Below are positions 4,084 through 37,253 of a stretch of 37,253 nt of DNA, one piece after another. The first letter of the stretch is position 1. Every line of letters starts with the position of its first letter. Under the pieces are notes generated by a model that saw nothing but the letters and a program-made list of their open reading frames with translations, ran no database searches and was not told where the DNA came from. The DNA comes from a virus (lineage: Duplodnaviria > Caudoviricetes). The translations under genes and the position numbers were made by a program. The stretch spans positions 1-37,253 of IMG/VR virus record IMGVR_UViG_3300030207_000942, one strand, 5' to 3'.

Positions 4084-4254
4084 ATGCCAGGACATTATGG
4101 TAAAAAGAAAGGCGGTATGAAAAAAGGTGGTGCTAAAAAAGGTGGCGCTAAAAAAGGTACTGCAAAACTAGCAGCTATGTACGGAAATAAAAAAAAAGTA
4201 ACAAGGGGTGATATTATTGCTGCAGCCAAAAAGAATAAAAGAGGTAAAGCTTAA
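4084..4254 (+). CDS. Lys/Gly-rich basic peptide (56 aa; below ORF-track cutoff)
   Basis: AGGAGG RBS; MPGHYGKKKGGMKKGGAKKGGAKKGTAKLAAMYGNKKKVTRGDIIAAAKKNKRGKA. Confidence 0.85.
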   Translation: MPGHYGKKKGGMKKGGAKKGGAKKGTAKLAAMYGNKKKVTRGDIIAAAKKNKRGKA

Positions 4255-18000: not shown

Positions 18001-21000
18001 TGATTTTCGTGCAGAAGGTGAATTAGAGGCGGCATCAGTCAGATTTGTGTACAAAAAGAATTTTGTGCCTGATAAAGGATTAGGGCCTCAAAATCCAGAA
18101 TATTTAAATCAACCAAAAGATAAACACGGTGCATTAATGTTTTTTACACCTAATGGAAAACTTTTGTCAGCCCTAGAACCTTTACCCGTAAACTCACATA
18201 TTTATAGAGGTTTAGAAAAACAATACAAAAATATGAATAAAAAGAAAAATGAAAAACCTATAATAGATAGATACAACAGTTTTGTTGAATCTAATGATTT
18301 TTTAAATCCGATGACAATAAGCCCTAAATCTGGCAAAGAAATTAGAGATAAGCTTTTTTATGGAACAGGGTTGACTATGCAAGATATGCTGTTGATGATG
18401 GAAAAAATTGGTGTTGAAGTAGAATTTGTGACAAAAGAACAAATGAAAAAAAAATACAATGCGTCTGGTGCTTTAGGTTTTACTGCGCCACCAGAATTTT
18501 TTAATAAAGAAATATCAGCTAAAGGTATGAAACAAGAAGGCAACATAAAAATTATTTTGTTAGACAAATTTAAAAATGACCCATCATTAGTTATAGAATT
18601 AGAACAACTTTTTGCCCATGAAATGATGCACGTTATTGATTATTATGATAAACAATGGTCAGAGTTAACAAAACCAAGAGAACGAGGACAAACCGAAAAT
18701 TATGAAGGATATGCCGCAGCTTTATCAAGAAAATTTGGTGGTAATAGATTTGTTGGAAGAATGTTAGGTACAGATTTTAGTGGTGGAGAAGCAGACTCTA
18801 GAGTTCCAGGAAATTTTAATTTTAGAGAATTTATGGAAGCTATGGAACAGTCAGAATCAGTAGCAGATACTTTTAGAATAGGACGCGGAAACGTACTAGG
18901 AGCATTAGCTACGTACAAAGATTTTGGAGAAGAATTTTTTGATGCAACTAAAAATGAACCTATGTCTCTTGCAACTTACAAAAAACGTATAAAAGAAATG
19001 GAGCTTGAAGCCAAGTCAAGGCAAAAAGAAATAGAAGAAAAATATAAAAAAGTTTTTGAAACAGACAAAGTGCCACGAACTATAAAAAATAATAAAATAC
19101 TGTTGCCTGTATTAGAAGAATTTTTACCCATTCAAATATACGAGGACCTGTTAAATTTTTCTCACCCTTTGCGTCTGCAAATGATTACAAATGCAGTAAG
19201 CAGTTTACCTAAAGATTATAAAAAAATTTTTGACCCACAAAGTTTTGATGATGTAGTTGGACCAACAGTGTATAAAGATTATGGTAGGGCATTTGCACAG
19301 GCAATAGAAAATGAATTTGCACTTAATGGAATTATAAGTTTGCACGTTGTTTACAGAGAAATGGCTTATATTTCAAACCAGTTTAGACCTACAAGCGAGG
19401 AAGCTCTAGATTATAGAGCTGCATGGATAAATCAATTTCAGGGTAGCAGCCTTGAAGATTACGGGTACGCGAATACTATAAAATACATAAAAGAAATGTA
19501 TCAAAAAGCAGATATGGTTTTTCCTTCTTTGCAAAGAAGATTAGAATATACTCCTGCAGAATATAAAAAACATAGAAAAGAAATAAAAGCCGTCTTAGAT
19601 GCACCAACTTCTCGTTTATCAGAAAATGGGGTAAAAAATATGTTAGGCGAATACGACTTTTATTTCTCAAGAGTAAGTGGATATTATAGAAACACTAAAG
19701 AGATGTTTGCTGATTGGGGTATGGCTTTTATTTTATATCCAGAATTTACAAAAGTTCATTCTCCAGTAGCAACAAAATTTTTTCTAGAACATTTAGACAA
19801 AAAACCAGAATTTGCTAAAACCTATAATTATATACAAGCTGCAATAAACAAAACACCTGGTGAATCTACAGGCAGAGAAGGACAATTGTTTAACGATATG
19901 TTTGATGCTATCAAAAGAAAACAAAAAGAAGTAGAGGTTGCAAAAGAAGAGGGAGACGTAAAAGACCCATTTGAATATAAAACAAAATATTTTGACCAAC
20001 ACAGTATGCTCACCAGTTATCTTGATGCTACTGGAGGCAGGCCGCAAGAATTTTCAAGTGCAATCTTAAAAGGTGAAGCGACAAAAGAAGTCAGAAAAAA
20101 TCAACATTTAGATTTTACACAAAATCCAGAACTTACTAAAGAAGACGATATTATGTGGCAAATTGGTCAACTACAACTTAAATCTACAGAGTTTGAAAAA
20201 TTTTCAGACCAACTTTTTCCTGTAATGCAAGCTTTGCAAGAAGCAATGATAAAATACCCAGAAATGAGAGAAGATACAGATGCATTTCTAACTACAGTAG
20301 GCCTATACCACATAGTAGCAAAAGGCGGTTCGAGAGAAGAAGTTGCACAAAACCCATTGTTTTTAAGAGGTAAAGAATTATTTAAAAACATGCACCCAAT
20401 ACAATATCGTGACAAAGATGGCAAACCGTATGGTGACCCTATAAGTGTTATTGAATTTCTTGATAAAAGACCTATGGCAGAAGACATGATAAAATACATA
20501 GACAAAACATATCCAGAAGTAAATGCTGCCATAGAAGAATTTTTTTCTGTTACAAGAGATGCCTTAGTAAATTCTTTAGCTTATAGTGGACTTGTAGATA
20601 TAGCAACATTAAAAAAAATAAAAAACAACAAATGGTTGACAATAACTTATGGCGACAGAATGATAGAAAGATTAAGAGTTACAGGTCGAGAAGGTTTTAA
20701 AGGAACAGGTTTTGAAGCAATTAAAGGCAGTATAAAAACACCAGCTGCATCGTTTTACGAAACTATAGAAAAAACAATAAACATAATAAGTGTTGCTAAA
20801 AATAACACTTTTTTAAATTATCTTGCCAGAAAAACTCCATTTGATTTAAAAGGATATAAGCGTTTATTAGAATCAGAAGGTTTATTAGATGACACTAGCA
20901 GAGCAAATCAAGCTGTAAGTTTTGATTTGTGGCAAGACCAAGTAGGTTTTTTACGAACTAGCAAAGAATTATTGGAATCTTTTTTTCCTGGTGTAATGGG

Positions 21001-23469: not shown

Positions 23470-25959
23470 ATGGCAATATCAACAACAATAATTAAGAATA
23501 GTTACAGTGGAGACGGGTCTAACGATACCTTTGCATACCAGTTTAAAATAGCTGCAGATGCAGATATACAGGTTATTATTAGGTCATCTACTGGTGCAGA
23601 AACTGTAAAAACCCTCACTACACATTATACAGTAACTGGTGCAGGAAATGCAACTGGTGGGAATGTAGTCTTTGAATCTGCACACATACCTACAGCTACT
23701 GAAACAGTAGTTATAAGAAGAAATACAACACAGACACAAACACTTGACTTAGTAGAAAACGACCCATTTACAGCAGATTCTGTAGAGGGTGCATTTGACA
23801 AGAACTTAGCAGCTATACAAGAACTTCAGGAGCAAGTAGACAGGTCATTTAAAGTATCAAGAACTAATACAATATCATCATCAGAGTTTGTAGATAGTGC
23901 TACTACAAGAGCTGGTAAGACACTAGGATTTGATTCATCAGGCGATTTAACTACAGTTGCAGACTTTTTACCAGCTGGTGGAGATTCAGCATTATTTAAA
24001 TATTCAACAACTACATCAGAAGCTGACCCAGGAGCTGGCGTGTTTAGAATGAACAATACTACATTCTCTAGTGTTACAGAACTTTACATAGATGACACTG
24101 ATTTAAACGGCTTAGATGTTGCAGCATGGGTGCAGTCCTTTGATGACGTGTCTGGAAACGATACAAACAGAGGCCGTATTAGAATACAAAACGCAGGAAC
24201 ATTAACATCTTATATTACATTTAAAGTAAGGGGTGCAGTATCTGACGAAACTGGATATACAAAAGTATTAGTAACTCACATAGCATCAAACGGCACACTA
24301 GCTAATGATGCAAAAGCATTTATATCCTTTGTACCTAGTGGTGAAGATGGTGCAATACCAGGATATTTCTATAAGTTTGATACAGGCACAAGCGATACAG
24401 ACCCTGGAGCAGGAGAGATAGCCTTTAACAATGGCACATATGCTTCAGTAACAGCTATATATATAGATGATGTTGATGCAAATGGAAGCTCAACACAAGC
24501 AGATACAATAACATGGGATGATAGTACATCTACAATTAAAGGCTATCTACATATAGTAGACATAAATGACAGCAGCACATACGCAAGATTTTCTATTACT
24601 GGTGCATCAACAGATGCTTCTGGATATAATAAACTTGCAGTAACACATATTGCATCAAACAATACTTTCTCAGCAGCAGATGAATTATCAGTACACTTTA
24701 CTAGACAAGGCGATAAAGGAGATACAGGAGCTACTGGCTCTACTGGTTCTACTGGTCCAGCAGGAAGTAATGGTAGTGATGGTAGTGATGGAGCTGATGG
24801 TGCAGCAGGCACAAACTCACAATTGTCTATGACATTTGAAAGCACAACTTCTGACGCTGACCCAGGTGCAGGTAAAATTGCATTTAATAATGGCACTCTA
24901 TCTAGTGTATCTATCCTTTATATAGATGATGCAGATGATGCAGGTGCAGACATATCTGGTTATGTTCAAAGTTTTGATGACGTATCTAATACAGTAGCAA
25001 GAGGAATAATAACAGTAACCAAAGAAGGAACAGCATCTACCTTTGCTACATTTAAAGTTAGTGGTGCTGTTACAGATGCAAGTGGTTACACTAAAGTGCC
25101 TGTTACTCATGTAGTAAGCAACGGAACTTTTTCTGACAATGATGGAGTAGGAGTACATTTTAGTTATAGTGGTGCAGATGGTGGACAACAATCTGCTGCA
25201 AGATTTGTATTTAATATTACAGGTACACCTACAACTGTCACTGGCTCAGATGCTGCAGGACAAACACTTGCATACACAGCAGGACAAGTAGACGTATTTT
25301 TAAATGGTGTAAAACAAGTAGTAGGTACAGACGTAACTGCAAGTAATGGCAGCAGCCTTGTATTTGCTTCAGCGTTAGCAGCAGGAGATGTTGTAGAAGC
25401 AGTAGCCTTTACAGCTTTTTCTTCATCTAACATAGCAGCAAGTGAAGTAACATCTGGAACTTTTGACAAAGCTAGACTACCAGCAGGTGCTATATTACAA
25501 GTATTACAAGCTGTAAAGACAGACACACAAGCAACTACCTCTACATCACCAGTAGACGTTAGTGGGCTTTCCGTAGCAATTACACCTCGTAGCACATCAA
25601 ATAAAATTTTAGTTATGATGGATGTTGCAGTTGGTACAGCAGAATCTACAGGTAGTTTGGGAGCTGTGTATTTGTTACGAGGTTCTACAAATATTTATGT
25701 TGGAGATGCAGCTAGTAATAGAGCAAGAGCAACTGCACAAATAGATAACAACGCTGGTGATATGTCATTTAGTATTGTTCGTAACCATGCAACATTTTTA
25801 GATAGTCCGTCATCAACATCAGAACAAACATACAAAGTACAGTTTGAAACACACAATGGTGCAAACGAAGTTTATATAAATAGAAGTGGTAATGATGGCG
25901 ACCAAACTTATATACAAAGAGTAGCATCATCAATTACAGTTATGGAGGTAGCAGGGTAA
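23470..25959 (+). CDS. Tail fibre protein
   Basis: T7 gp17-like N-terminal anchor (SYSGDGS..TF.Y.F, VIRR.T...Q..D); three DPGAG...YIDD repeats; collagen Gly-X-Y segment. Confidence 0.92.
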   Translation: MAISTTIIKNSYSGDGSNDTFAYQFKIAADADIQVIIRSSTGAETVKTLTTHYTVTGAGNATGGNVVFESAHIPTATETVVIRRNTTQTQTLDLVENDPFTADSVEGAFDKNLAAIQELQEQVDRSFKVSRTNTISSSEFVDSATTRAGKTLGFDSSGDLTTVADFLPAGGDSALFKYSTTTSEADPGAGVFRMNNTTFSSVTELYIDDTDLNGLDVAAWVQSFDDVSGNDTNRGRIRIQNAGTLTSYITFKVRGAVSDETGYTKVLVTHIASNGTLANDAKAFISFVPSGEDGAIPGYFYKFDTGTSDTDPGAGEIAFNNGTYASVTAIYIDDVDANGSSTQADTITWDDSTSTIKGYLHIVDINDSSTYARFSITGASTDASGYNKLAVTHIASNNTFSAADELSVHFTRQGDKGDTGATGSTGSTGPAGSNGSDGSDGADGAAGTNSQLSMTFESTTSDADPGAGKIAFNNGTLSSVSILYIDDADDAGADISGYVQSFDDVSNTVARGIITVTKEGTASTFATFKVSGAVTDASGYTKVPVTHVVSNGTFSDNDGVGVHFSYSGADGGQQSAARFVFNITGTPTTVTGSDAAGQTLAYTAGQVDVFLNGVKQVVGTDVTASNGSSLVFASALAAGDVVEAVAFTAFSSSNIAASEVTSGTFDKARLPAGAILQVLQAVKTDTQATTSTSPVDVSGLSVAITPRSTSNKILVMMDVAVGTAESTGSLGAVYLLRGSTNIYVGDAASNRARATAQIDNNAGDMSFSIVRNHATFLDSPSSTSEQTYKVQFETHNGANEVYINRSGNDGDQTYIQRVASSITVMEVAG

Positions 25960-26462
25960 TGAGTAGAGCAAGAGAATTAGGAACATACGCAGGAAAAATT
26001 TTACAAGTCAAATCAACTATTAAGACTGATACCTTTAGCACTACCTCTGGTTCAATAACTGATATAACAGGATTAAATGTATCTATTACACCAGCATCAA
26101 CTTCAAATAAAATTCTTGTAATAGCTAGAGTAAATATTGGTTTAGATAGAACAGCACCATATTTATACCCATTATTTTTATTTAGAGATTCTACAAATTT
26201 AGGTATACATGATTCAGCTAGTAATAGAACAAGAGCGCATTCTGGTGGACAATGGCCGTGTGCTTCAACTGACCCAACAGTAGATTACGTATTAGAATTT
26301 TTGGATAGTCCAAGTTCTACCAGTTCTCTTACATACAAAGTTGCTATGTTTTCAGAAAGTAGTGGCACAGCATATGTTAATAGAGGTACAGAAAATGATG
26401 GTGATGCAGCTATAACAGGTAGGTTTACATCAGTTATTACAGTACAGGAGGTTGCAGGATAA
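25959..26462 (+). CDS. Tail fibre-associated protein, paralogue of the fibre C-terminal domain
   Basis: GKILQV....KTDT, ITP.STSNKILV, FLDSPSSTS..TYKV, EVAG shared with the fibre tip. Confidence 0.85.
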   Translation: MSRARELGTYAGKILQVKSTIKTDTFSTTSGSITDITGLNVSITPASTSNKILVIARVNIGLDRTAPYLYPLFLFRDSTNLGIHDSASNRTRAHSGGQWPCASTDPTVDYVLEFLDSPSSTSSLTYKVAMFSESSGTAYVNRGTENDGDAAITGRFTSVITVQEVAG

Positions 26463-26755
26463 TGGATATAATAACAGCAATTTTAGCTATAGATTCTGAT
26501 GCAGATGTAAGTGTAAATGCAGAAAGCTTTGACCAGATTACATGGCATGACGGCAATCCAAACAACATTACAAAAGAGCAAATTATTGCAAAACAAGAAG
26601 AATTAAAAACAGCACATAATAATACCAAATACCAAAGAGATAGAGCTGCAGAATATCCTAGCTGGGAAGACCAATTGGACAAGATATATCATGATGGGAT
26701 TGATGCTTGGAAGGCAGATATAAAAGCAATTAAAGATAAATATCCAAAACCATAG
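26462..26755 (+). CDS. Putative tail fibre assembly chaperone
   Basis: YQRDRAAEYPSWEDQLD.IYH.GIDAWK..IKAIKDKYPKP; follows fibre genes. Confidence 0.7.
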   Translation: MDIITAILAIDSDADVSVNAESFDQITWHDGNPNNITKEQIIAKQEELKTAHNNTKYQRDRAAEYPSWEDQLDKIYHDGIDAWKADIKAIKDKYPKP

Positions 26756-26764
26756 GAGTGCAAC

Positions 26765-26953
26765 ATGAGTAATATATTAGAAGATATTATTAAAAGACTA
26801 GAAAAAGTAGAACATAGGGTACAGGGCGTAGAAGAAATTTTAGAAATAGAAGACAGCTACGGGGATATTTACAACACAGAATTAGAAGCTGAAGACGCGT
26901 ATCCAGATTGCGATTGTGATGAGACTTGCGAGGATTGTGAGGTTGAAAACTAA
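26765..26953 (+). CDS. Small acidic protein with a Cys cluster
   Basis: AGGAG RBS; N-terminal coiled coil; CDCDETCEDC. Confidence 0.7.
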   Translation: MSNILEDIIKRLEKVEHRVQGVEEILEIEDSYGDIYNTELEAEDAYPDCDCDETCEDCEVEN

Positions 26954-27158
26954 TAACGAACTAACTGTAGAGATAGAACGTATTAAAGGTGATATAAAAC
27001 TTATACACAAATCAGTAGAAACTATTGAAAAGAATCATTTGCGTCATATAGAAGACGATATAAATTCTATAAAAAAAGTTTTGTGGACTGTGGCAGTAGT
27101 TGCAGGAACACAAATGATTATTGTTATACGAGAACTTTTAATTAGGGGGATAGCATAA
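26937..27158 (+). CDS. Coiled-coil plus C-terminal TM protein (XhlA/holin-like)
   Basis: IEKNHLRHIEDDI followed by VLWTVAVVAGTQMIIVI; start uncertain (26916, 26937 or 26943). Confidence 0.65.
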   Translation: MRLKTNNELTVEIERIKGDIKLIHKSVETIEKNHLRHIEDDINSIKKVLWTVAVVAGTQMIIVIRELLIRGIA

Positions 27159-27535
27159 TGTTTGGTTTGTTATCAGCAGTAGTATCAACAGCAGTAGATT
27201 GTTTTAAACAAAGACAAGAGACTAAAAAGTACGAAGCCATGGCTGAAAGAAATCATATGTATCGTATGGCTCAGGGAGAGATAGACTATCAAGCACAGGT
27301 AAGAGCAGACAACAACAATGGTTGGAAAGACGAGTTTGTTCTTGTGATAGTATCATTGCCTATACTTGTACTTGCATACGCAGTATTTTTTGGTGATGAT
27401 ATGATGAAGGAAAAGTTAGACCTATTCTTTCAATACTTTAATGGATTACCTCAATGGTATCAATGGTTACTAATAGGTATTTTTGGAGCTATATATGGAC
27501 TTAAACCAGCAGCTGGCATGTTTGGTAAGAAATGA
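27158..27535 (+). CDS. Putative holin (multi-TM membrane protein)
   Basis: GWKDEFVLVIVSLPILVL, LPQWYQWLLIGIFGAIYGLK; basic C-terminus. Confidence 0.65.
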   Translation: MFGLLSAVVSTAVDCFKQRQETKKYEAMAERNHMYRMAQGEIDYQAQVRADNNNGWKDEFVLVIVSLPILVLAYAVFFGDDMMKEKLDLFFQYFNGLPQWYQWLLIGIFGAIYGLKPAAGMFGKK

Positions 27536-28173
27536 ACTATATAATACATACAATAATTCAAGTATTATTAATTTTTGCAGGGGTGGTAGCATTTGCAACA
27601 GATAATAGTACGTCTAATCAGACTAACACTTCGGGTTCTAACACTTCCATATCGGGTGGTTACACGTCAACGACCACGAATACATACTCAGGAGGTCAGA
27701 CTAACACCACGACCAATAGCACGAGTAACACCACGAAGACTCAACAGATACCTGTAAATACTGCAGCAGCACCCTCTATGTCATCATACAGCCAGGACCT
27801 ATGTATAGTAGGCGTGTCTGGTGCAGTTCAGGTAACAGGGTTTGGAGTATCAGGTGGGACATATGTTGTTGACGAGAATTGCGAAAGGATGAAACTATCA
27901 AAATTATTATACGACTTTAATATGCGAGTTGCATCAATCGCAATACTTTGTCAAGACGATAGGGTGTTTTCTGCCATGGAACACGCAGGTACTCCTTGCC
28001 CATTTGAAGGACAGATAGGAAAAGATGCTACAAATCAATGGAAAAAATATGACATAGAAAGACCAGATTATGATACTTATGTACAAAAACTTAAAAGAAG
28101 AGCAGCTATAGATAACAAAACAGAGTTTGTGCCTATAGACACGGAGTATGATTTATATGGAGACGATGATTAA
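27532..28173 (+). CDS. Secreted protein with Ser/Thr/Asn-rich linker and Cys-containing domain
   Basis: Signal-peptide-like N-terminus ending AFA; four Cys (DLC, NCER, ILC, TPCP). Confidence 0.75.
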   Translation: MNYIIHTIIQVLLIFAGVVAFATDNSTSNQTNTSGSNTSISGGYTSTTTNTYSGGQTNTTTNSTSNTTKTQQIPVNTAAAPSMSSYSQDLCIVGVSGAVQVTGFGVSGGTYVVDENCERMKLSKLLYDFNMRVASIAILCQDDRVFSAMEHAGTPCPFEGQIGKDATNQWKKYDIERPDYDTYVQKLKRRAAIDNKTEFVPIDTEYDLYGDDD

Positions 28174-29575
28174 ATGTGGCTACTTGTTGTTAATTGCATT
28201 CTTGATAGCGTGGGCAGCAACAGCAGAAGACATAACGACTGGAAACCTTTTGCCAAATGGTTCTGGAAACGCAAGTAACTACCAATCTGTCGATAGTTCT
28301 ATACCTAACGTAACAACTAATGGCTTTACAGTTGAAGGAAATATAAGAGACTGGGGACAAGAGTTAGAAACAACAGGTACAGGAAGTATAAATTATACTG
28401 GTACATTACTTAATATTGTAACAAATGATGACACCACAACGCAAGACAAATTAGATAATGGTATAACATTAAACTCTACAACCATAGTACAGAACTGTGA
28501 ATGGGTAGGCTCTGCTTATCAATGTGGTCAAGCAAGAGCGGGGCAAGACAGTTACACAACGACAGTACAAATATTAGATAAAGATGGCACGGTTCTTGCA
28601 ACTGTAAACCAAACTAGAAATAATGATTCTGGTTATGGTGCTAATGCATACAAGTATGAAGATACAGTTACTTACGCAGGTGCAGGTAGTAACCAGTTCT
28701 ATTGGGAATGGGAAGGGGTAGATGAAGGTAGCTATGTAAACCTAGGTGGACCTAATCTTCTTGGTGCAAAACTTACAATGACATACAATAATACTGTAAT
28801 ACCAGAGGAAACTATAGAAGAAATATATGAAGTTATAGAGGAATTTGAGGAATGGGAAGAACAATTTGTAGAAGAAGAACTAATAGAAGAGTTTGAATTA
28901 TTACCACCACCTATTGCATTAGAAGAAATGGGCATTATAATTGAAGAAGAGCAAATCGTAGAGGTGTTTGAAACTTTTGAAGAGTTAGAAGAAGAGTTTG
29001 AAGAGGTAGAAATACTGCAAGTATTTGGAGGACCAGAAATTGTACCAGAACCCGAGGAAGAAGAGGTTAGTAACGAGACTTCTGTTGCAGCAGTTGAAGA
29101 AGAGTTCATGGAAGAACAACCTGAACCGACTGAAAGTACCCCTGTGGAAACAGTTCAAGAAGAACCTCAGAGTGAACCATCTAATAACGAGCAAGTGGCA
29201 GTAGCTGAAGAAGAATCTACAGAAGTATCTGTAAGCGTAAGCTCTATACAAGCAGAGGTTAGCGTAAAGATAAAAAGCGTAGAGAAACAATTAGCAGCTA
29301 CTAGCATTATAGCTCAACAAGTCATGGTGCAAGAGCAAGTAGATTTATCTAGCTACAACAAAGCATATGTAGATAACAGAAAAATATACGAAGGCAATAC
29401 TTATGAAGACCTACGAACACTTGATGAGTATAGCAAAAAGATTTATAATGATGATAGAAAGTTTGTAGCTATATCTATGAATGACCCTGTAAAGGATTAT
29501 CAAAACAATCTTAGAAATGCTACAATAAAAAGAAAGATAGCTGAACAAGAACTTAGACAGCTAAGAGGTTACTAA
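28166..29575 (+). CDS. Secreted protein: beta-rich domain, Glu/Pro-rich linker, C-terminal helix
   Basis: MIKCGYLLLIAFLIAWAATA signal-like segment; GGAG before ATG 28166. Confidence 0.75.
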   Translation: MIKCGYLLLIAFLIAWAATAEDITTGNLLPNGSGNASNYQSVDSSIPNVTTNGFTVEGNIRDWGQELETTGTGSINYTGTLLNIVTNDDTTTQDKLDNGITLNSTTIVQNCEWVGSAYQCGQARAGQDSYTTTVQILDKDGTVLATVNQTRNNDSGYGANAYKYEDTVTYAGAGSNQFYWEWEGVDEGSYVNLGGPNLLGAKLTMTYNNTVIPEETIEEIYEVIEEFEEWEEQFVEEELIEEFELLPPPIALEEMGIIIEEEQIVEVFETFEELEEEFEEVEILQVFGGPEIVPEPEEEEVSNETSVAAVEEEFMEEQPEPTESTPVETVQEEPQSEPSNNEQVAVAEEESTEVSVSVSSIQAEVSVKIKSVEKQLAATSIIAQQVMVQEQVDLSSYNKAYVDNRKIYEGNTYEDLRTLDEYSKKIYNDDRKFVAISMNDPVKDYQNNLRNATIKRKIAEQELRQLRGY

Positions 29576-29817
29576 TGGATTTAATGGAAACACTAAAAAA
29601 ATATATAGCACTTGTTGGTATTGTTACTACAATAGGTGGTGGTTTTTATGCATGGGGTGTATTTAACAATAGGCTTGATGAATTAGAACAATCTAAATCT
29701 ACAAAAACAATAAAGGCTATGAAAAAAGAAATAGCTATACTAGAAAAAAGAGTAGCTGTGTTAGAAACAAAGCTTGATGAATTTAGATTTACAATACAAA
29801 ACCCACTAAAAAATTAA
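29575..29817 (+). CDS. N-terminal TM plus coiled-coil protein
   Basis: YIALVGIVTTIGGGFYAWGVF followed by heptad repeats; TAATG coupling. Confidence 0.75.
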   Translation: MDLMETLKKYIALVGIVTTIGGGFYAWGVFNNRLDELEQSKSTKTIKAMKKEIAILEKRVAVLETKLDEFRFTIQNPLKN

Positions 29818-29826
29818 GGAGGTATC

Positions 29827-30021
29827 ATGGCTTTAGATAAAGATAAAATTAAAGAAGAGCTAAAAGATTTTACTGAAGATGCAGCAGAAGTTATTGGAGA
29901 TGCACTTAAAAAACATTTCTGGAAATCTGTAAAAGCAGCATGGAAAGGTTTCTCAGTTATACAAAAATTATATGTAGTTGTAATCTTTGGAGCTTACTCT
30001 TATTTATTATATTGGATTTAA
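29827..30021 (+). CDS. Small C-terminally anchored membrane protein
   Basis: AAGGAGGT RBS; LYVVVIFGAYSYLLYWI. Confidence 0.75.
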   Translation: MALDKDKIKEELKDFTEDAAEVIGDALKKHFWKSVKAAWKGFSVIQKLYVVVIFGAYSYLLYWI

Positions 30022-30716
30022 ACTAACTTACCTATCCAGTTTCCATCATTATCAAGAACCATAGGAAACAGTTTAGGTATTCCATCTATAATCATACCGC
30101 AGCCTAGTATGAATCTGGTTTTAAAATTTTTAGCATAGGCAAATGCTAGGCTCTTTTGATTTATAAGGCAGCCTACATTCATACCCCAGAATAAATTGTC
30201 AGGGTTTGCCCACCACGATATCAAGAACTTAGTGTGGTAATGTCCTTGCACTGCATTCATTCCCATAGTTTGTGATACCTTTAACACATCTGCTACCCTG
30301 CCATGTGTAAAAAAACATCTTTGTTTATTCGGTAAAGTAATAGTTAAATCATCTTGCCATGTCCACTTCTTTGTACCTAAAAACTCCCCATAAGTTCTAA
30401 GAAACATACGGCTCATACCAGACTTCAATGCCCTACGATATACCATAGAACTGTGGTTAGATTCTACTTCTATTACTTTTGGAAATATTTCTTCTAGTTC
30501 TTTGACGTATACTTTTGCTTGTGTTAGTTCATCACCTGGACTAGGCAGGTCAGGGTCGTGGTCGTGCATAGACATAGCTTGAAAATCTAATAAGTCGCCA
30601 ATATTTACGACAAAATCTGGATTGTATTCTTGTTTAATTTTGCTAAGAAATGCAAAAGCATCTTTGTGATGGTATGGTATGTGCAAATCACTTATTATTA
30701 ATATGCGCTCATACAT
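30018..30716 (-). CDS. Calcineurin-like metallophosphoesterase
   Basis: ISDLHIP, IGDLLD, SNH, FTHG, QGHYH motifs. Confidence 0.92.
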   Translation of the reverse strand: MYERILIISDLHIPYHHKDAFAFLSKIKQEYNPDFVVNIGDLLDFQAMSMHDHDPDLPSPGDELTQAKVYVKELEEIFPKVIEVESNHSSMVYRRALKSGMSRMFLRTYGEFLGTKKWTWQDDLTITLPNKQRCFFTHGRVADVLKVSQTMGMNAVQGHYHTKFLISWWANPDNLFWGMNVGCLINQKSLAFAYAKNFKTRFILGCGMIIDGIPKLFPMVLDNDGNWIGKLV

Positions 30717-30722
30717 TATCGT

Positions 30723-30752
30723 ATCTTACCACAAGTTATCCACATTAATCAA
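30723..30752 (-). promoter_or_regulatory. Promoter for a leaderless metallophosphoesterase mRNA, containing a DnaA box
   Basis: TTGATT-N18-TAAGAT with extended TG; ATG 6 nt after the -10; TTATCCACA at 30736-30744. Confidence 0.55.
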
Positions 30753-30930
30753 CAGGTGGATTCAATTCTTCAAACATGTTTAACAATCTTTTTTGTATTA
30801 AGTTGCGCAATCTTTCTTCTGTTAGTTCAAAAGTTTGTTTGTCGTTTAATTTCATGTAACAAACTTGTTTTTCTTTTATCATATATGCTATATCTCTAGC
30901 TAACTCGTTTACAGTTTTTGTCATTGACAT
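30745..30930 (-). CDS. Hypothetical protein (61 aa)
   Basis: AAGGAG RBS upstream of ATG 30930. Confidence 0.7.
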   Translation of the reverse strand: MSMTKTVNELARDIAYMIKEKQVCYMKLNDKQTFELTEERLRNLIQKRLLNMFEELNPPVD

Positions 30931-30951
30931 TTTAACTCCTTTTTATATAAT
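30924..30951 (+). promoter_or_regulatory. Consensus sigma70 promoter, antisense to the surrounding operon
   Basis: TTGACA-N16-TATAAT. Confidence 0.75.
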
Positions 30952-30957
30952 ATAAAT

Positions 30958-31029
30958 GTTAGTTGAGTTGAGTCAAACATAGGTTTGATAATGAAGAAAG
31001 CAAGGAGACTTGCACTACAGCTCAACTAA
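30958..31029 (+). ncRNA. Candidate small structured RNA (three-way junction, about 72 nt)
   Basis: 12-bp closing stem and two hairpins, one with a GAGA tetraloop; begins 7 nt after the TATAAT. Confidence 0.65.
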
Positions 31030-31943
31030 AATTGCACCTTGTCTCTATAATAATTACAATAATTTTTTACATTACAATAATGTTCACATCTAACATCTTC
31101 ACCTATGCGTCTTATAATTGCACAATCTTTTCCCTCTGTCATATTATTATCAGCTATATATTGATGTGCCAATTTTTCTGACTCTAAAACACGCACTGCT
31201 TTAACTCTTCCTTTTTTCATAACTGCATAAGTTGTAGGTTTTGACCATCGTTCAGCAGGCGTACATACTGGTAATTTATCAGTCGTTTTATGAAGACTTT
31301 CTTGATGCAAACTTATTCTTTGTTTAATGTAATTAGATTGTTCTTCTCTAGACCATCTGCGTATTGGTATCATAATGGCTTGCTTCTTTGGATAAGTGTC
31401 AGATTGCATTACGCGCACCTTAGACCAATCACGTAATATAGCCATAATGGATAATGATTGTACAGGGTATAAATCATTATTGCTTGCTATAAAATCATAT
31501 ACATTCAATTGTTGTTCCCATTCTATTTTATTATTTTGTAACGCATCCATAGCAGTCCAGGCAGATGTAACTTTAAAGTCAATAAGACTACCGTCTGCTT
31601 GTAACAAATCTATTTGACCACTTAATTTCCAATGATTAGTTTCTGGACCTTCATAAAAAATTCTTTCTTCTACTATGTCTGATTTTAAGGCAGCCCTTTC
31701 TATAACGTGATGCACTGATTGACCTAAGAGCGAGAAAACTAAGTCTGATACATCTTCCTCTATGTCCAGGGCATACCTAGATTCTAATTGTGTTATTCTT
31801 GGTGGTTTAATTAAAGTAGTAGTGCTAATATCCGATGGTCCTTTTATGTAAGTATCATTCTGTACAGCTCTAACAATACATTTTGGTAAATTGTATTTGT
31901 TTTTTATGCGACGAAGCTGTACAACTTTTGGTAGGTCTCTCAT
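31026..31943 (-). CDS. PD-(D/E)XK (Cas4/RecB-like) exonuclease
   Basis: GQSVHHVIE, LSGQIDLL....LIDFKVTS, QLNVY, C-terminal C...RCEHYC.VK.YC. Confidence 0.85.
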   Translation of the reverse strand: MRDLPKVVQLRRIKNKYNLPKCIVRAVQNDTYIKGPSDISTTTLIKPPRITQLESRYALDIEEDVSDLVFSLLGQSVHHVIERAALKSDIVEERIFYEGPETNHWKLSGQIDLLQADGSLIDFKVTSAWTAMDALQNNKIEWEQQLNVYDFIASNNDLYPVQSLSIMAILRDWSKVRVMQSDTYPKKQAIMIPIRRWSREEQSNYIKQRISLHQESLHKTTDKLPVCTPAERWSKPTTYAVMKKGRVKAVRVLESEKLAHQYIADNNMTEGKDCAIIRRIGEDVRCEHYCNVKNYCNYYRDKVQF

Positions 31944-32533
31944 TAAAAGGGTACATCTCCAATGTCGTTGGCCTCGTCACCAAGGTCTGTGTTCATGCCT
32001 TCTAATTCTTTAGACCTCATAATCATATTTCTTATACCTTCAGACAAAGAATTAAAAGTGTCTCTTTTGTTTTGTTGAAAATCTTCTATTGTAAATAAAA
32101 CAACATCATGAATGGCAGGTCGCATTTTATCTGGATTTGAATGTGGCATTACGCTATTTACCTGCACCCTACCACGTTTGTCTTCTATTAAATTTAACAT
32201 GCAAGATACATTGACAAGGTTGCCTATATCAAATCCTTGTTTTTCTGTTTCTGTAAACGCTCTACCTCTCCATGAAGTTAGGTCTGCACCTAGTTTACTT
32301 TTTTCATGTAAAGATAAATTGTAAAATTTACTGATGGTAAGTGGCATGCCATCCTTTAATTGTTCAGGCAATTCCCATATCAACATAACCTGTCTTTTCC
32401 AAGTTGTCTCTCCTTCATAAGTATTTTTCTGTGTGCCAAGGTCGATTACCTTTACACAACGAGCTTCGTGAACTCCAACATCTGGTTGTATAAAACCAGA
32501 ACCAGAGTCTGTGCTTTTTGCAATTAATGCCAT
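31943..32533 (-). CDS. Putative ssDNA-binding protein
   Basis: GVHEARC..VIDLGTQ, SK.YNLSLHEKSKL...L.SWRG; SSB-like acidic tail ending GDVPF; GGAGG RBS. Confidence 0.7.
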   Translation of the reverse strand: MALIAKSTDSGSGFIQPDVGVHEARCVKVIDLGTQKNTYEGETTWKRQVMLIWELPEQLKDGMPLTISKFYNLSLHEKSKLGADLTSWRGRAFTETEKQGFDIGNLVNVSCMLNLIEDKRGRVQVNSVMPHSNPDKMRPAIHDVVLFTIEDFQQNKRDTFNSLSEGIRNMIMRSKELEGMNTDLGDEANDIGDVPF

Positions 32534-32565
32534 ATATGCCTCCAAATTTTTTTTATTGTTTCAAA

Positions 32566-32623
32566 AGATTAACATATGTAAAGCTTACTGTCAACTTGAC
32601 TAGAGTTAATAATGTCGTATATT
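32566..32623. promoter_or_regulatory. Back-to-back divergent promoters, each with an operator
   Basis: - strand TTGACA-N17-TAATCT. + strand TTGACT-N16-TATATT. Operators at 32569-32582 and 32596-32609. Confidence 0.75.
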
Positions 32624-32629
32624 AATAAT

Positions 32630-32848
32630 ATGGAAAATGAAAACTATATTATGGCTGTACAAAGAACTGTAGAAATAAGAAACAATTACGGTGGTGCAGA
32701 ACTCGCTAGAAAACTAGGCATATCACATGCCGCTGTGTCTAAATGGAAAGTTATACCTCCTTTTCGTGCATATCAAATTGCACAACTAGGTGATTATAAG
32801 TTAGAATATATTAGACCCGACATTAAATTTGGTGTTGGCCCTCAATAG
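32630..32848 (+). CDS. Cro/YdaS-like HTH regulator
   Basis: YGGAELARKLGISHAAVSKWKVIPPFRA..I.......LE.IRPDI; likely leaderless start at 32630. Confidence 0.88.
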   Translation: MENENYIMAVQRTVEIRNNYGGAELARKLGISHAAVSKWKVIPPFRAYQIAQLGDYKLEYIRPDIKFGVGPQ

Positions 32849-32896
32849 GAGGCAGTAAATCATCCTTTACGTATATGCAACCTCTTGCTGCCTCCT
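32847..32896 (+). terminator. Stem-loop after the cro-like gene
   Basis: AGGAGGCAGTAA / TTGCTGCCTCCT, 12-bp stem with a 26-nt loop. Confidence 0.55.
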
Positions 32897-32898
32897 TG

Positions 32899-32989
32899 TA
32901 GCAATGCTATAGCACTGTGTTATACATTCGCAATGCGATTTTATCCCCTTCATCTTCACCTTCATCTTCATCTTCACCTGCATCTTCAT
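32899..32989. repeat. Candidate replication origin: palindromic iterons plus a (CTTCAY)n array
   Basis: TAGCAATGCTA 32899-32909; TCGCAATGCGA 32928-32938; seven 6-nt units 32948-32989. Confidence 0.6.
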
Positions 32990-32998
32990 ACAAGATAG

Positions 32999-33040
32999 TT
33001 GACAAGCAGTAGAGTTATTAGTTATATTAACTAGAGTAAA
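32999..33040 (+). promoter_or_regulatory. Promoter and operator for the DUF1376-like gene
   Basis: TTGACA-N18-TATATT; TTAACTAGAGTAAA at 33027-33040. Confidence 0.65.
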
Positions 33041-33043
33041 GGT

Positions 33044-33415
33044 ATGAGAAAACTAAAGAGTTATGAACAAAGCCCTGCTTTTCAATTTTATGCAAGCGAC
33101 TGGATAAGCGACCCTAACAGAATGATGATGTCCCTTGAGGAGCAGGGTGCATACATATTGTTGTATTGTCATTGTTGGAGAGCTGGTACTATATCTAAAG
33201 AAATGGAAGTATTAGCACGTATGTGCAATTGCAGTTTGGAAAAAATAAAGAAGATATGGCCTAGGATACAACATATGTTTAAGGAAACACCAAAGGGTCA
33301 ATTGTTTTGCGTGCAAGCTGAAGAAGAAAGAGAAGAGCAATTAATTAATAGAAAAAAACGTAGTGACGCAGGTAAGAAAGGTGCTAAAGTTCGATGGAAG
33401 AATGGTAAAGCATAA
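33044..33415 (+). CDS. DUF1376/YdaU-like replication initiator, N-terminal domain only
   Basis: PAFQFYASDWISD....MMSLEEQGAYILL....W, LARMC, RSDAGKKGAKVRW. Confidence 0.85.
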   Translation: MRKLKSYEQSPAFQFYASDWISDPNRMMMSLEEQGAYILLYCHCWRAGTISKEMEVLARMCNCSLEKIKKIWPRIQHMFKETPKGQLFCVQAEEEREEQLINRKKRSDAGKKGAKVRWKNGKA

Positions 33416-33605
33416 TTTGTTTTTCTATTATATCTTCTATGTTATGTGTGTTGCAGTAAAAAGTATCAAATCTATCTTCTATTTCTTTTACAACCAATTC
33501 TGTAATAGCTATGCTGTCAGACACACGATGCGTTCTGTCTATATATTTTAAAATTTTTATTTTATCCAAGGGTTGTATTCTGCCATTTTTTTTTACTATA
33601 TTCAT
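33384..33605 (-). CDS. Stand-alone ATP-cone-like protein
   Basis: IVKKNGRIQPLDKIKI...THNIEDIIEKQI matches the ATP-cone pattern VxKRdG..e.fd..KI...t.eI.diVe..L. Confidence 0.7.
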   Translation of the reverse strand: MNIVKKNGRIQPLDKIKILKYIDRTHRVSDSIAITELVVKEIEDRFDTFYCNTHNIEDIIEKQIMLYHSSIEL

Positions 33606-33606
33606 T

Positions 33607-33897
33607 TTAGTTCTCCAACATTTGTAATACTTCTGCCAATAAATCTTCTTGACTTCCCCATTTGCGACTAAACTCTTTAGAATTGTAATGAAAAGATTCT
33701 TGACTTAATCTATGATGATAAGGACACAATGGTATTACTTCATAATGACTTGCTCTTTTACCCATGCCCGTCATAGACCTTATGTGATGTAACTCAGCAG
33801 GCGACATCTCATTGCCTTGCTTGTGACAAATAATGCACCCAAGCTTAGCAACTTTATTCATGTGTTCTTTTTCTGCTTTAGTTTTTGTACGTGCCAT
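33607..33897 (-). CDS. Ref-like HNH nuclease
   Basis: EKEHMNKVAKLGCIIC...PAELHH....GMGKRASHYEVIPLCPYHHR...WGSQEDLL. Confidence 0.85.
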   Translation of the reverse strand: MARTKTKAEKEHMNKVAKLGCIICHKQGNEMSPAELHHIRSMTGMGKRASHYEVIPLCPYHHRLSQESFHYNSKEFSRKWGSQEDLLAEVLQMLEN

Positions 33898-34168
33898 AAT
33901 CGAAATCTTTTTCCGTAAAAGTTTTTGCGCCAATTTTATTTATTACTTTGATGTTACGGGTAGGAATTATTATTTCATCACCAACATCTTCGATTGTAAA
34001 AGACATAACAAATATGTGTTTGTCTTCATCTTTATAAACTAAATAACCTTCTGTGTAACATATACTTAAAGTGTCTTTTCCAACATCAGACCTCGATTTC
34101 CATTCTGCGTGACTGGTAGCATCTTCCCACCAACATTCATATTTTGATAAAGTAAATTTACGGGCCAT
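33878..34168 (-). CDS. Hypothetical phage protein
   Basis: W.DA.S..EW...C.TEGYL pattern; overlaps both neighbours. Confidence 0.75.
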   Translation of the reverse strand: MARKFTLSKYECWWEDATSHAEWKSRSDVGKDTLSICYTEGYLVYKDEDKHIFVMSFTIEDVGDEIIIPTRNIKVINKIGAKTFTEKDFDYGTYKN

Positions 34169-34517
34169 AGTTTTTTCTTTCTCTTCCATCGTTTATCATT
34201 TTTGTTTTCCAAGTATCAAAATTAATATCAACAATTTTCTTTTGCCAATTTAATTCTGATTCTATTTGCACAGCTTCGGCAAGTGCTTGTATGTGCTTTT
34301 GATACCTTTCGTCTGAACGTGCTTCCCTTTCTTGGGCTGCGGCCGTCTCTAATTTGCCTGTTGTAGAGTTTAGCTGATATTCTTTCATGAGTCTAGCTAA
34401 CAAAATTTTTCTACCATGTTCTAGTATTGTTAGATTTTTCTTAGCTTCAGCGTGTTTTATACCTATTTCTCGTAATTTTTCTAATTTTAATTCTATTAAG
34501 TCATCATATGTATTCAC
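34158..34517 (-). CDS. Coiled-coil protein, possibly a UvsY-like recombination mediator
   Basis: All-helical, AAQEREARSDERY; ATGA overlap with the helicase. Confidence 0.6.
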   Translation of the reverse strand: MNTYDDLIELKLEKLREIGIKHAEAKKNLTILEHGRKILLARLMKEYQLNSTTGKLETAAAQEREARSDERYQKHIQALAEAVQIESELNWQKKIVDINFDTWKTKMINDGRERKNYGP

Positions 34518-36001
34518 TTGTTTGCCTCCATAGCTTTCGCTTTTTTAATATTGTAATGTTTTATGTAATTAAGAACATCTTTGCCAGGTTTAACTGGCTG
34601 TACCTGTTTGTTTGCAGGAAAATGTTTGTATTTATCTTTAAATATCCAACTAGCCCAACCATCATCATAGCCCTTTTGTCTTGAATAATATAAAACTTGG
34701 CTATAAAAATGTTTTTTATGTTCTGGTTCTACCTTATCTTTCTTTGTTATTTCTATCAATCTGCCTTGTTTTATAAGAATTGCTCTTTCTTTTTTAGTAG
34801 GCACATGTAAACACATAGGGCATTCTGGCGCGTTTTTAGTGGGTTTATAGACGTAATTACATTCAACGCAGGTATAAGGTTGTTTTTCTATTTCGCGTGG
34901 CTTATTTGGCTTCCTGTTGTCTCTTTTTTTTGCTTTCAAAGACCAAGTTGGGGGTTCATCAGGAAATCCATGCTCGTAAACAGCGCCACTATGGTCAATT
35001 ATAAGGGTGTCTTTCTTGTTTTTGTATGGTCTAAGGCTTCTGCCTACCATCTGCAAGTATAATCCATAGCTTTTTGTAGGCCTAGCAAGAATAACACACG
35101 ACACTTTAGGGCAATCCCAACCTTCTGTAAGCACTTGACAGTTACTTAATACTCTAATATCTCCTGATTGTAGCATTTCTAGTTGTCTTTCGCGCTCTGT
35201 TTCCTTCATTTCACCATCTATATGCCCAGCAGGTATGCCATTTTGTCTAAAAATATTAGCAATATATTTACTGTGTGCAATAGATGTAGCAAAAACCACA
35301 GTTGGCCTGTCATTTGCGTATAAATTCCAGTGTTCTACTAAATCTCCTACTAATTTAGGTATGTTCATACGTTTGTTTAACATTTTAGCGTCATAATCAC
35401 CAGCAGTAATCTTAATTCCTTTTAAATCTGGCATAGTAGGCGCAACAATTCTGCTTGGGACTAAATATTCCTGAGATGTAAGCTCTTTAATATTGCTGCA
35501 CTCTATTATTTTCTCGTAAATATCGCCAAGACCACGCCCATCAGACCTACACGGTGTTGCTGTAAGACCTATGATGTAAGAACTAGGGTATAACTCTAAT
35601 AATTCTTGAAAACTTGTAGACACTGACCTATGTGCTTCGTCTAATATAATGACATCTGCTACAGGCAAATCAAAATCTTGTTTATCTTTACGTGCAGTAA
35701 AAGTCTGTATTGATGCTATTTGCACGCCAGCGTGTTTTGTAGGGCTTTTACCTGCCATAAGTAAACCGTGTGGCACACCAAAATCATAGAGCTTACGGCT
35801 ACATTGCATAATAAGTTCTCGTCTGTGCGCTACAAACAAGCAACGTTTACCGCCCGCTACTACACGCCTTATAACTTCAGAGGCCACAACGGTCTTACCA
35901 GAGCCAGTTGGCGCAACTAATAAAAGTCGACGCAAACCTTTTCTGTAATTCAACGACATTTCTTCTATACTTTTTGTTTGATAATTACGTAGTTGGTACA
36001 T
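34514..36001 (-). CDS. SF2 DEAD/DEAH-box helicase with Zn finger
   Basis: LRNYQ, APTGSGKT, DEAH, GLTATP, LTEGWD, QMVGRSLR, CVEC...CPMC. Confidence 0.95.
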   Translation of the reverse strand: MYQLRNYQTKSIEEMSLNYRKGLRRLLLVAPTGSGKTVVASEVIRRVVAGGKRCLFVAHRRELIMQCSRKLYDFGVPHGLLMAGKSPTKHAGVQIASIQTFTARKDKQDFDLPVADVIILDEAHRSVSTSFQELLELYPSSYIIGLTATPCRSDGRGLGDIYEKIIECSNIKELTSQEYLVPSRIVAPTMPDLKGIKITAGDYDAKMLNKRMNIPKLVGDLVEHWNLYANDRPTVVFATSIAHSKYIANIFRQNGIPAGHIDGEMKETERERQLEMLQSGDIRVLSNCQVLTEGWDCPKVSCVILARPTKSYGLYLQMVGRSLRPYKNKKDTLIIDHSGAVYEHGFPDEPPTWSLKAKKRDNRKPNKPREIEKQPYTCVECNYVYKPTKNAPECPMCLHVPTKKERAILIKQGRLIEITKKDKVEPEHKKHFYSQVLYYSRQKGYDDGWASWIFKDKYKHFPANKQVQPVKPGKDVLNYIKHYNIKKAKAMEANK

Positions 36002-36833
36002 ATCTTCTCCATATATCATTAAGTTGAAATATTACTTCTCGTAAATTTTCTGGCGGTGTGCATGCTTGTGCAAAACGTATTGCTTCTTCTCTAGCATAAT
36101 CGTAAGTTTCGCCACGCATTCTAATGCTAATTAACATTTTAACAAGTTTTTCATGCCTGTCGCCTTCGCCTGCTCCATAACTAAAATTTGTAGCAGTGTG
36201 TTTATAATCTTTGTTTATAACAACTTTTTGAACTTGTGGTCTTTTCAAACCTAATTGTATTTTTATTTGTTGTCTACTGTATGGTTTGCGTTGTAACCTC
36301 TCTATTATTTTTATAGGATATGGTTTGTTTTTGTTGTGGTAAAAACCTGCAACACGCATAACGCGTGGCAAATCTTTGACCTTTGTATCAGCATTATATT
36401 TTTCTGCAAGAGCTTGCTGATATAATGTAAAACTTTCTAATGGCATGTCAGACACTAACCAGTAACAATGATATTTTTTTGGGCTAGTGTTAACAACCAA
36501 GTGTGGCTGTAAATCAAATTTATCAGGCAAAGGGCTTCCGTCTAAATCTATAAATACAGCACGCACTTGGTTTATATGGCGTGTCGTTCTACCAAGGAGG
36601 TTGGTTTCGTTTACTGTAAAAAACACGCCTGCGCCTTTTCTATTTAGTTCAGCTAGCTTGTGAAAATGCTCTCTTATCGTGCCATGGAATTGCTTGACCA
36701 GGGATTTATTTCCGCTGTGCTTGTCGTCAAATGTTTGAAAACTGTGCTGTTCGCCAAACATCTGCAAAAATTCATAGTATTGACTGCATTTCATAAATAT
36801 TGCTTGATTCTTTATAATTCTCTTAATATCCAT
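35985..36833 (-). CDS. RepB-type (AEP superfamily) primase with PriCT-like C-terminus
   Basis: GVFFTVN, VFIDLDG, TSPKKYHCYW, KDLPRVMRVAGF.H.K, EGDRH..L; start uncertain (36860, 36833 or 36794). Confidence 0.88.
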   Translation of the reverse strand: MDIKRIIKNQAIFMKCSQYYEFLQMFGEQHSFQTFDDKHSGNKSLVKQFHGTIREHFHKLAELNRKGAGVFFTVNETNLLGRTTRHINQVRAVFIDLDGSPLPDKFDLQPHLVVNTSPKKYHCYWLVSDMPLESFTLYQQALAEKYNADTKVKDLPRVMRVAGFYHNKNKPYPIKIIERLQRKPYSRQQIKIQLGLKRPQVQKVVINKDYKHTATNFSYGAGEGDRHEKLVKMLISIRMRGETYDYAREEAIRFAQACTPPENLREVIFQLNDIWRRYVPTT

Positions 36834-36860
36834 ATTACGATTGCTATTCCCAACCACCAT

Positions 36861-37022
36861 TTAAGAATGTATAGAAAGGAGTCTCTTAGTTTTGGACTTC
36901 TTTTCTTTGGCGATTTTCTTTCTAGCTTCCACTGATTTCGCATGCTTCTTTTTCATCTCCTTTTTTTGTTTCTCGTTCATAGTGCGGAAAAAACCTGCTC
37001 CTCCAAACGTATTATCTTTCAT
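36861..37022 (-). CDS. Small basic hypothetical protein (53 aa)
   Basis: GGAGG RBS before ATG 37022. Confidence 0.65.
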   Translation of the reverse strand: MKDNTFGGAGFFRTMNEKQKKEMKKKHAKSVEARKKIAKEKKSKTKRLLSIHS

Positions 37023-37090
37023 ATTGTTCCTCCCATTATTGCTATCGCTAACCAACAAAGCAATGTTGTTAATATAATTGTTCTAGTCAT
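37019..37090 (-). CDS. 23-aa single-TM micropeptide
   Basis: AAGGAGG RBS; MTRTIILTTLLCWLAIAIMGGTI; overlaps genes on both sides. Confidence 0.6.
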   Translation of the reverse strand: MTRTIILTTLLCWLAIAIMGGTI

Positions 37091-37232
37091 CATCTTCCTC
37101 CTTTGGTAAATGGTCGTAGTTATCATGCTCTAGGTCTTCCTGTGCCATTATCATGGCATCTTTGGGACTATATCCTAGCTCAATATATAACTCAGCTCGG
37201 TCTTCTAAAAACTTCTCGTTGTGTTCGTTCAT
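37083..37232 (-). CDS. Small acidic hypothetical protein (49 aa)
   Basis: GGGAGG RBS; ATGA overlap with the endonuclease VII stop; MNEHNEKFLEDRAELYIELGYSPKDAMIMAQEDLEHDNYDHLPKEEDDD. Confidence 0.75.
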   Translation of the reverse strand: MNEHNEKFLEDRAELYIELGYSPKDAMIMAQEDLEHDNYDHLPKEEDDD

Positions 37233-37253
37233 CTCTCCCTCCCTAAATATTTA
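37156..37253. repeat. Terminal direct repeat (copy of 2-99)
   Basis: Exact 98-nt match. Confidence 0.95.

Follow-up and report, generated by a model that had tools for sequence, protein, structure and literature searches.

An apparently perfect sigma70 promoter that points against the genes around it raises the question of what it transcribes. Such a site lies in the window, the whole stretch of 37,253 nt analyzed here, which is a virus record of 37 kb, 98% complete, with podovirus-type head, tail and replication genes. The window's capsid protein shares 78% identity with that of Pelagibacter phage Baldr and 58-62% with those of HTVC010P-type phages; by sequence comparison the phage is a relative of the HTVC010P/Baldr-like pelagiphages, and a SAR11 host is therefore likely. 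Baldr itself has no such element, and blastn searches of cultured phages, with the window region and one homologous locus (a group B member, see below) as queries, gave no credible match. Elsewhere in the window, a 2798-aa ORF (15044-23440), without a PHROG match and 20-40% identical to counterparts in related phages, probably encodes an internal virion protein. A low-complexity run of GATGAA/GGTGAA-like hexamer repeats (32867-33012), located between the repressor-like and replication-initiator genes and adjoined by an 11/12 promoter-like site at 32999, is a possible origin region.

The promoter is composed of a -35 hexamer, TTGACA, at 30924-30929 and a -10 hexamer, TATAAT, at 30946-30951 of the + strand, 16 nt apart. 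A preliminary description of the locus had called it perfect, and it is indeed the only 12/12 site among the 56 sigma70 sites found in 25000-37253, and the only perfect one genome-wide. As that description also held, the promoter covers the ATG (30930-30928) and the RBS (30936-30940) of a 61-aa ORF of no known family (30745-30930, - strand), whose place is taken in other members by genes of 77 or 95 aa. Because TTGACA is at the same time the reverse complement of the first codons of this gene, the perfect -35 match is partly borrowed; the hexamer is weaker in most relatives, and loci L001 and L003 carry TAGACA at this position, plus a TG-extended -10 box.

The transcript would be approximately 72 nt long (30958-31029, + strand), with a 5' end placed by the -10 spacing and a 3' end placed by the outermost helix, P1, which pairs 30959-30970 with 31018-31029 and contains one U-G pair. 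Enclosed by P1 are the P2 hairpin (30972-30989; 7 bp and a variable 4-nt loop), in which the stem at 30973-30988 is lengthened by G30972-U30989; the J2/3 strand (30990-30999; consensus AAYGNAGAAA), the core of the motif; P3 (31000-31013), with 5 bp and a GNGA tetraloop; and the J3/1 strand ACUA (31014-31017). The 3' arm of P1 overlaps the stop codon (31026-31028) of a phage exonuclease gene (31026-31943, - strand; phrog_2139), whose product is 55% identical to a Baldr protein. The promoter and helix coordinates given earlier, and this overlap, were exact, except that G30958, previously taken as the first paired base, is unpaired in the MFE fold, where U30959-A31029 is the first pair. Folding of 30955-31035 gives a three-way junction on the + strand, with a free energy of -27.1 kcal/mol (z -5.36) that none of 200 shuffles equals; the - strand reaches -20.0 kcal/mol (z -4.18). 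A fold of equal stability occurs in just 1 of the 1860 81-nt windows of the genome. A 10/12 promoter-like site on the - strand (30976-30949) and a terminator-like - strand call on P3 also overlap the element. Two short TTG-start ORFs, 31010-31093 and 31032-31181, do follow the promoter on the + strand, contrary to the earlier statement that none does, but both are shadow ORFs of the exonuclease gene, and relatives do not conserve the AAGGAG ahead of the first.

Homologues were first sought in loci fetched via the 61-aa protein (n = 3) and via an exonuclease alignment (best 80 of 482 loci), the latter having worked where a scan with a single exonuclease protein gave no match. A promoter-plus-P1 pattern was discarded as too loose: it returned about 520 stretches, and among the loci then available only L001-L003 matched the element by blastn. 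Searches with core patterns retrieved 120 and 90 stretches from viruses, 51 from metagenomes and one from a bacterial genome. From 96 distinct core matches, the 54 with a paired P3 and flanking helices were kept, while the 42 dropped were mostly unpaired, located in coding-like sequence, or incomplete. Overall, about 50 distinct homologues were obtained, all from viral and metagenome contigs, and the eight genomes examined, as well as the window, hold one copy each. The sole match among 185,579 bacterial and archaeal genomes (L391) was attributed to chance, as one of its three variable P3 positions is paired and it has no model match. A model search of 151 alphaproteobacterial genomes (the class of G001), a small sample run with no positive control, gave no match; a weak one (L547; E 0.025) was found in genome G166.

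As for the novelty claimed for the element, Rfam 15 holds no match for it at E ≤ 1 for the window or E ≤ 10 for nine member loci, with only chance-level matches off the element. ARAGORN found no tRNA or tmRNA gene in five loci, and there is no fixed CCA behind P1. No paper on non-coding RNA of pelagiphages was found in our literature search, and the core sequence is absent from all searchable full texts. The RNA may already stand, unnamed, among the candidates of PMC10690425 or PMC5737381.

An alignment (A2) was prepared from 45 of the 54 kept members, leaving out three near-duplicates and six short forms. As it required no gaps, the geometry of the element (P1, a single base, the 7-bp P2, 10 nt, the 5-bp P3 and ACUA) is nearly fixed. 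In A2, 82% of the cells are paired; the share falls to 64% in shuffles and to 30-47% after sliding of the partners. Double-sided change is seen in 20 of the 24 pairs. All three helices covary: double-sided change was seen in 12/12 pairs of P1 (72% of cells paired) and in 6/7 pairs of P2, while P3 is paired in 100% of cells, and RNAalifold yields the same fold unaided. We also applied a home-made, tree-aware substitute for R-scape, run with 150 null alignments over 3081 pairs, in which two of the 24 structure pairs reached E < 0.05; no other pair did, leaving no covarying pair, hence no covarying pseudoknot, beyond the nested fold at that threshold, and the structure holds six of the top seven pairs.

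Since the search patterns themselves force conservation of the core, it was checked separately on 48 matches (32 distinct) from loci fetched via neighboring proteins, although some bias remains because the model was built from core-selected rows. All 32 distinct members parse as AAYGNAGAAA, P3, GNGA loop and ACUA. Within J2/3, G4 and A6-A10 are fixed in all 32, position 5 takes all four bases, and positions 1-3 vary between A/G, A/G and C/U, respectively; ACUA is invariant. The P3 loop is GAGA in 29 members and GGGA, GCGA and GTGA in one each, always GNGA on the + strand, and its closing pairs covary too, with GCUAA-GAGA-UUAGC as the commonest P3 (17/32). This core stays fixed while the neighboring exonuclease drifts to about 55% identity. 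Moreover, a natural short form (L141, L230, L252, L272, L296 and L322) lacks P2 and has one helix capping the core, which suggests that the working unit is probably the 28-nt core J2/3-P3-ACUA. Altogether, homologues and covariation support the earlier proposal of a conserved three-way-junction RNA on the + strand with a promoter-like signal at its 5' end: it is virtually certain that the element is a real, conserved, structured one, and very probable that it is RNA. The family, apparently undescribed, is a real phage RNA family with a well-supported fold.

The homologues belong to two phage groups. In group A, the kind represented by the window, the RNA lies antisense to the early operon, behind the exonuclease gene, and occurs in 9 of the 80 exonuclease loci (six long and three short forms). 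The gene behind the promoter varies; on the other side, insertions of Dam-like, methylase-like or other genes are seen, and in some members other genes intervene between the exonuclease gene and the RNA. On an exonuclease tree of 33 rows, presence of the RNA needs two changes (shuffled mean, 10.5), with carriers spanning deep branches. Seven near-complete group A genomes and Baldr lack the RNA; it is dispensable in this group.

Two further features concern other regions. An insertion hot spot lies beside the RNA in L272, L252, L427, L370, L372 and L344, where genes of about 150-160 aa, presumably methylase-like from their motifs, or of 271 aa separate the RNA from its usual neighbor. In the window, a late-strand gene block at 26916-30021 (80, 213, 475, 80 and 64 aa), mostly without PHROG assignment, is present in the three other RNA-bearing group A genomes tested (3/3) and missing from the RNA-less ones (4/4), and two of its genes also match the group B genome G158.

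Group B is formed by phages of 36-38 kb that carry tail and tape-measure-like genes, encode a capsid protein of the lambda E type, and have no close cultured relative (best 35%). Here the RNA lies in sense direction behind the capsid gene; the antisense arrangement emphasized in the preliminary description is correct for the window against its surrounding operon but is not family-wide. The model matches 39 of the 62 capsid loci, all of them among the 50 closest (L483-L532). Of the 11 misses among these, three loci are incomplete, seven have no directly following glycosyltransferase gene on the same strand, and one (L531) comes from a more distant phage. What follows is a gene for NUMOD4-HNH, for a glycosyltransferase-methyltransferase fusion or for a methylase-like protein, or else a convergent ORF: the RNA directly precedes an HNH-family gene in most loci, several have no adjacent HNH gene, and L505 and L508 have a convergent ORF directly 3' of the RNA. 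In genome G154, the RNA and the HNH gene are found together at a new site some 17 kb from the capsid gene, moved away from it and from the glycosyltransferase genes. DNA methylase and DNA-glycosyltransferase-like genes (the glycosyltransferases scanned being those of G152 and G154) cluster beside the RNA. Groups A and B have in common a metallophosphoesterase of 22-28% identity, encoded in 5/5 group B genomes but also in 2/4 RNA-less group A genomes, along with scattered tail and other matches; with so little shared, no common phage partner is evident. A 97-aa tail-region protein, which the window shares at 69% identity with two group B genomes, may hint at a shared host.

Group B loci carry other unusual features. 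A fusion of 960-970 aa with the order GT1-methyltransferase-GT2 (L549:1544-4465, + strand; L551:4730-7621, - strand) adjoins DNA methylase genes, is inverted in G154, and is a candidate DNA- or virion-modifying enzyme. Just 3' of the terminator-like hairpin of the capsid gene, one to three tandem 25-nt units (L483:3996-4070, L517:3994-4068, L488, L499, L505, L523 and others) each read as a small H-type pseudoknot: a stem of 4 bp, a loop of 5 nt, a linker rich in A, and a tail, 3-4 bases of which change along with the loop. These units, present in 16 of the 28 group B loci tested and in none of eight group A genomes, have no Rfam match and resemble type III antitoxin repeats in plan. Behind them come an RBS of the GAGGT type and a basic ORF, about 30 aa long, that ends at the promoter of the RNA (L259:2557-2742, - strand; L517, about 4090-4185; L500, L503 and L522), an arrangement that occurs even where the three-way-junction RNA is absent.

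Regarding the promoter, a -10-like hexamer ends 33-42 nt 5' of J2/3 in 34 of the 43 distinct members, against 17.0 ± 3.2 in 500 shuffles, and the best such hexamer lies 5-9 nt ahead of P1 in 30 of the 43. This spacing would point to a primary 5' end, and a -10 box about 7 nt ahead of the 5' end is what a stand-alone sigma70 sRNA gene should have. On the - strand, such hexamers are nearly as frequent (32/43), as they are near-palindromic; once the -35 box is included, the + strand outscores the - strand in 30/43, which resolves the strand only weakly. Most members have no U-tract 3' of P1. Among the RNA runs, one of the four listed shared words (0.17), and no contig assembled from RNA runs spans the element in the window or in L483; contigs of this kind cannot show a 70-nt RNA, and the result speaks neither for nor against its transcription.

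One of these contigs (31031-31251, depth 7.5) lies over the 3' end of the exonuclease gene, ending 2 nt short of P1, a weak single hint of - strand processing. Together with the terminator-like call on that strand, it would agree with a role of the element in terminating or processing the - strand exonuclease message, through the P3 hairpin and the T-rich complement of J2/3. However, the flanking genes of group B are all on the RNA's own strand, which already disfavors this reading. The pairs themselves also favor the + strand, with 65 G-U against 14 A-C cells in an alignment fitted to the structure (L345 dropped), and on the - strand the G-U pairs that L003, L490 and L491 have in P3 would become mismatches. 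Moreover, the usual P3 contains only two G-C pairs, and the T-run is broken by fixed bases; we regard this explanation as the least probable of all. Scarcely more probable is a structure in single-stranded DNA, serving as an origin, priming or nicking signal that the promoter opens. DNA hairpins also tolerate G-T pairs and contain G-A loops, and a single copy per genome would suit such a signal, but the element occupies differing positions in two unrelated genome plans, has been relocated within group B, and is missing from the seven near-complete group A genomes and from Baldr, which must still replicate.

The arrangement of the neighboring genes bears on whether the RNA acts in cis, as a leader that modifies RNA polymerase or stabilizes the transcript, for which put-like promoter-proximal RNA offers a model, and that would gate HNH translation in group B and drive antisense read-through over the exonuclease gene and the gene upstream in group A. 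The promoter-like box always adjoins the element; most members lack a U-tract; an AUG lies 16-21 nt 3' of ACUA in most group B loci, so that P1 overlaps the ribosome footprint; and in group B the RNA is found wherever the glycosyltransferase gene closely follows the capsid gene, with the exception of L531. Nevertheless, group A has no + strand gene downstream, the downstream neighbors are of at least five kinds, L505 and L508 have their convergent ORF in that place, and G154 has only the 0.5-kb HNH gene before a convergent gene. A cis-acting leader is therefore, in our view, unlikely. Retention of both the promoter-like box and the core despite changing neighbors and orientation is instead the behavior of a gene, not of a leader attached to one gene.

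If the RNA is a gene of its own, its fixed junction has to be explained. About 14 fixed junction bases on freely covarying helices of fixed length, with a dispensable P2 and indifference to neighbors, make up the pattern of small ribozymes and aptamers. The fixed junction would suit a new class of small self-cleaving ribozyme, or a metabolite-binding aptamer acting as a sponge, as well as it suits the protein-binding role favored below, and either would be a new RNA class. We hold this to be rather unlikely, as none of the Rfam ribozymes or riboswitches matched within the limits given above, cleavage within a unit clamped by P1 would give no clear product in group A, and no consistent pathway lies downstream, as would be expected of a riboswitch. 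Even less likely is a regulatory RNA that acts by base pairing with J2/3 as seed, either in the manner of C4/CI or as an sRNA against a conserved host RNA. Its size and three-helix shape are like those of C4 (77 nt and three stem-loops in the accessible part of PMC5320573), and G-U wobble would let J2/3 pair with a fixed target despite its variation at positions 1-3. Yet such a seed is identical across unrelated phages and enclosed in the junction, and the RNA predicted in the window leaves out the RBS of the 61-aa gene. The 10-mer of J2/3 recurs in two of nine phage genomes, at unrelated places, and its generic form matches 1-3 times in RNA-bearing and 1-4 times in RNA-less genomes, where 1.4 matches are expected. 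No conserved target of the unpaired strands was found in the nine genomes, a result that leaves room for shorter or imperfect targets. Invariant bases in a closed junction suit tertiary folding or binding better than seed pairing.

Based on these results, we favor, at a probability of roughly 0.45, a stand-alone phage RNA gene whose invariant junction binds a host protein in trans, as a decoy or inhibitor; a decoy had been the second option of the preliminary description. The RNA, of about 70 nt, would be transcribed by the host sigma70 RNA polymerase from its own promoter, starting near 30958, with its 5' end tucked into P1 and its 3' end presumably trimmed back to P1, given that most members have no U-tract. 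P1 and P2 would be a scaffold that keeps the 28-nt core closed, and the junction would offer a surface to a partner from the host, not from the phage: no phage protein common to all RNA-bearing genomes was supported, and since none tracks the RNA across both groups, the partner would be the host's. Likewise, finding one RNA in two phage groups that are otherwise unrelated suggests a single host target. The NUMOD4-HNH gene of group B would be a passenger using the promoter of the RNA, whose role may lie in counter-defense or host takeover; the methylase- and glycosyltransferase-like neighbors would fit a counter-defense region. No mimicked host RNA was found by model search in one alphaproteobacterial rRNA operon or in the 151 genomes of that class. 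More tentatively, the RNA could possibly be of a new counter-defense or takeover kind, a 28-nt tertiary module that inactivates a host protein, acts as a sponge for a host signal or, as a new ribozyme class, cleaves itself, copying no known host RNA. If true, podo- and siphovirus-like phages unrelated to one another, infecting the most abundant bacteria of the ocean, have exchanged this module. With its small size, covariation-backed fold, minimal form and apparent promoter, the RNA can be synthesized immediately for cleavage, ligand and protein tests.

Among known systems, the immunity RNAs are closest in build, and had been put forward as analogues: C4 of P1 and CI of P4, beside which CA of N15 is a further example. 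Like C4 (RF01695) and P4 CI, as far as the accessible text of the sources describes them, the element is phage-encoded, 70-80 nt long and built of three helices around a junction, and it shows the three stem-loops in about 77 nt of C4-type RNAs. C4 and CI are cut from longer precursors by RNase P. Their variable loops pair with targets in the same genome (accessible parts of PMC5320573 and PMC4825925). By contrast, the 5' end of the element is predicted at the promoter, its unpaired strands are invariant across two unrelated groups, and the C4 covariance model does not match it. Invariant unpaired strands and the absence of a conserved target make the analogy weak.

Other comparisons share single features. 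Fixed junctions and covarying helices recall small ribozymes and riboswitches (hammerhead, twister-sister, purine, glutamine-I and c-di-GMP-II), and the short form loosely resembles the 5' strand of c-di-GMP-II; unlike them, the element has no Rfam match, no pseudoknot, no fixed downstream gene and no partner strand for kink-turn G-A pairs. The nuclease-associated HEARO/omega RNAs and the NUMOD4-HNH homing genes come to mind because the RNA precedes an HNH-family gene in most group B loci, but in contrast to HEARO/omega RNA the element is much smaller and has no variable guide end. A nuclease guide or scaffold was rejected, as NUMOD4-HNH is absent from 8/8 group A genomes, four of which carry the RNA. 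The L11/L10-binding junction of 23S rRNA, numbered H42-H44, is likewise a three-way junction in which AGAAAGC leads into a short hairpin; only these 7 nt are common, however, and they occur twice in that 23S, while the conserved loops of the rRNA have no counterpart. Mimicry of this site or of the sarcin-ricin loop was rejected for lack of the conserved loops and pairs and of a model match in one alphaproteobacterial operon. Small RNAs that sequester CsrA/RsmA carry repeated GGA in hairpin loops; here GGA appears at the P3 loop in a minority of members only, and such a decoy was rejected as well.

This leaves the RNAs with which phages occupy host proteins. Pseudo-ToxI and RNA anti-CRISPRs, which are phage RNA decoys, copy host RNAs, namely a tandem pseudoknot antitoxin and the CRISPR repeat. 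Type III antitoxins are tandem H-type pseudoknot repeats, and membership in them or in pseudo-ToxI was rejected, as the element, unlike pseudo-ToxI, is present in a single copy, covaries at E < 0.05 only within the nested fold, and has no match among the host RNAs tested. Still, phages do use RNA decoys, such as pseudo-ToxI of phage TE in the accessible part of PMC3475682, and it is in this way, with its fold occupying a host protein, that the element would most likely work.
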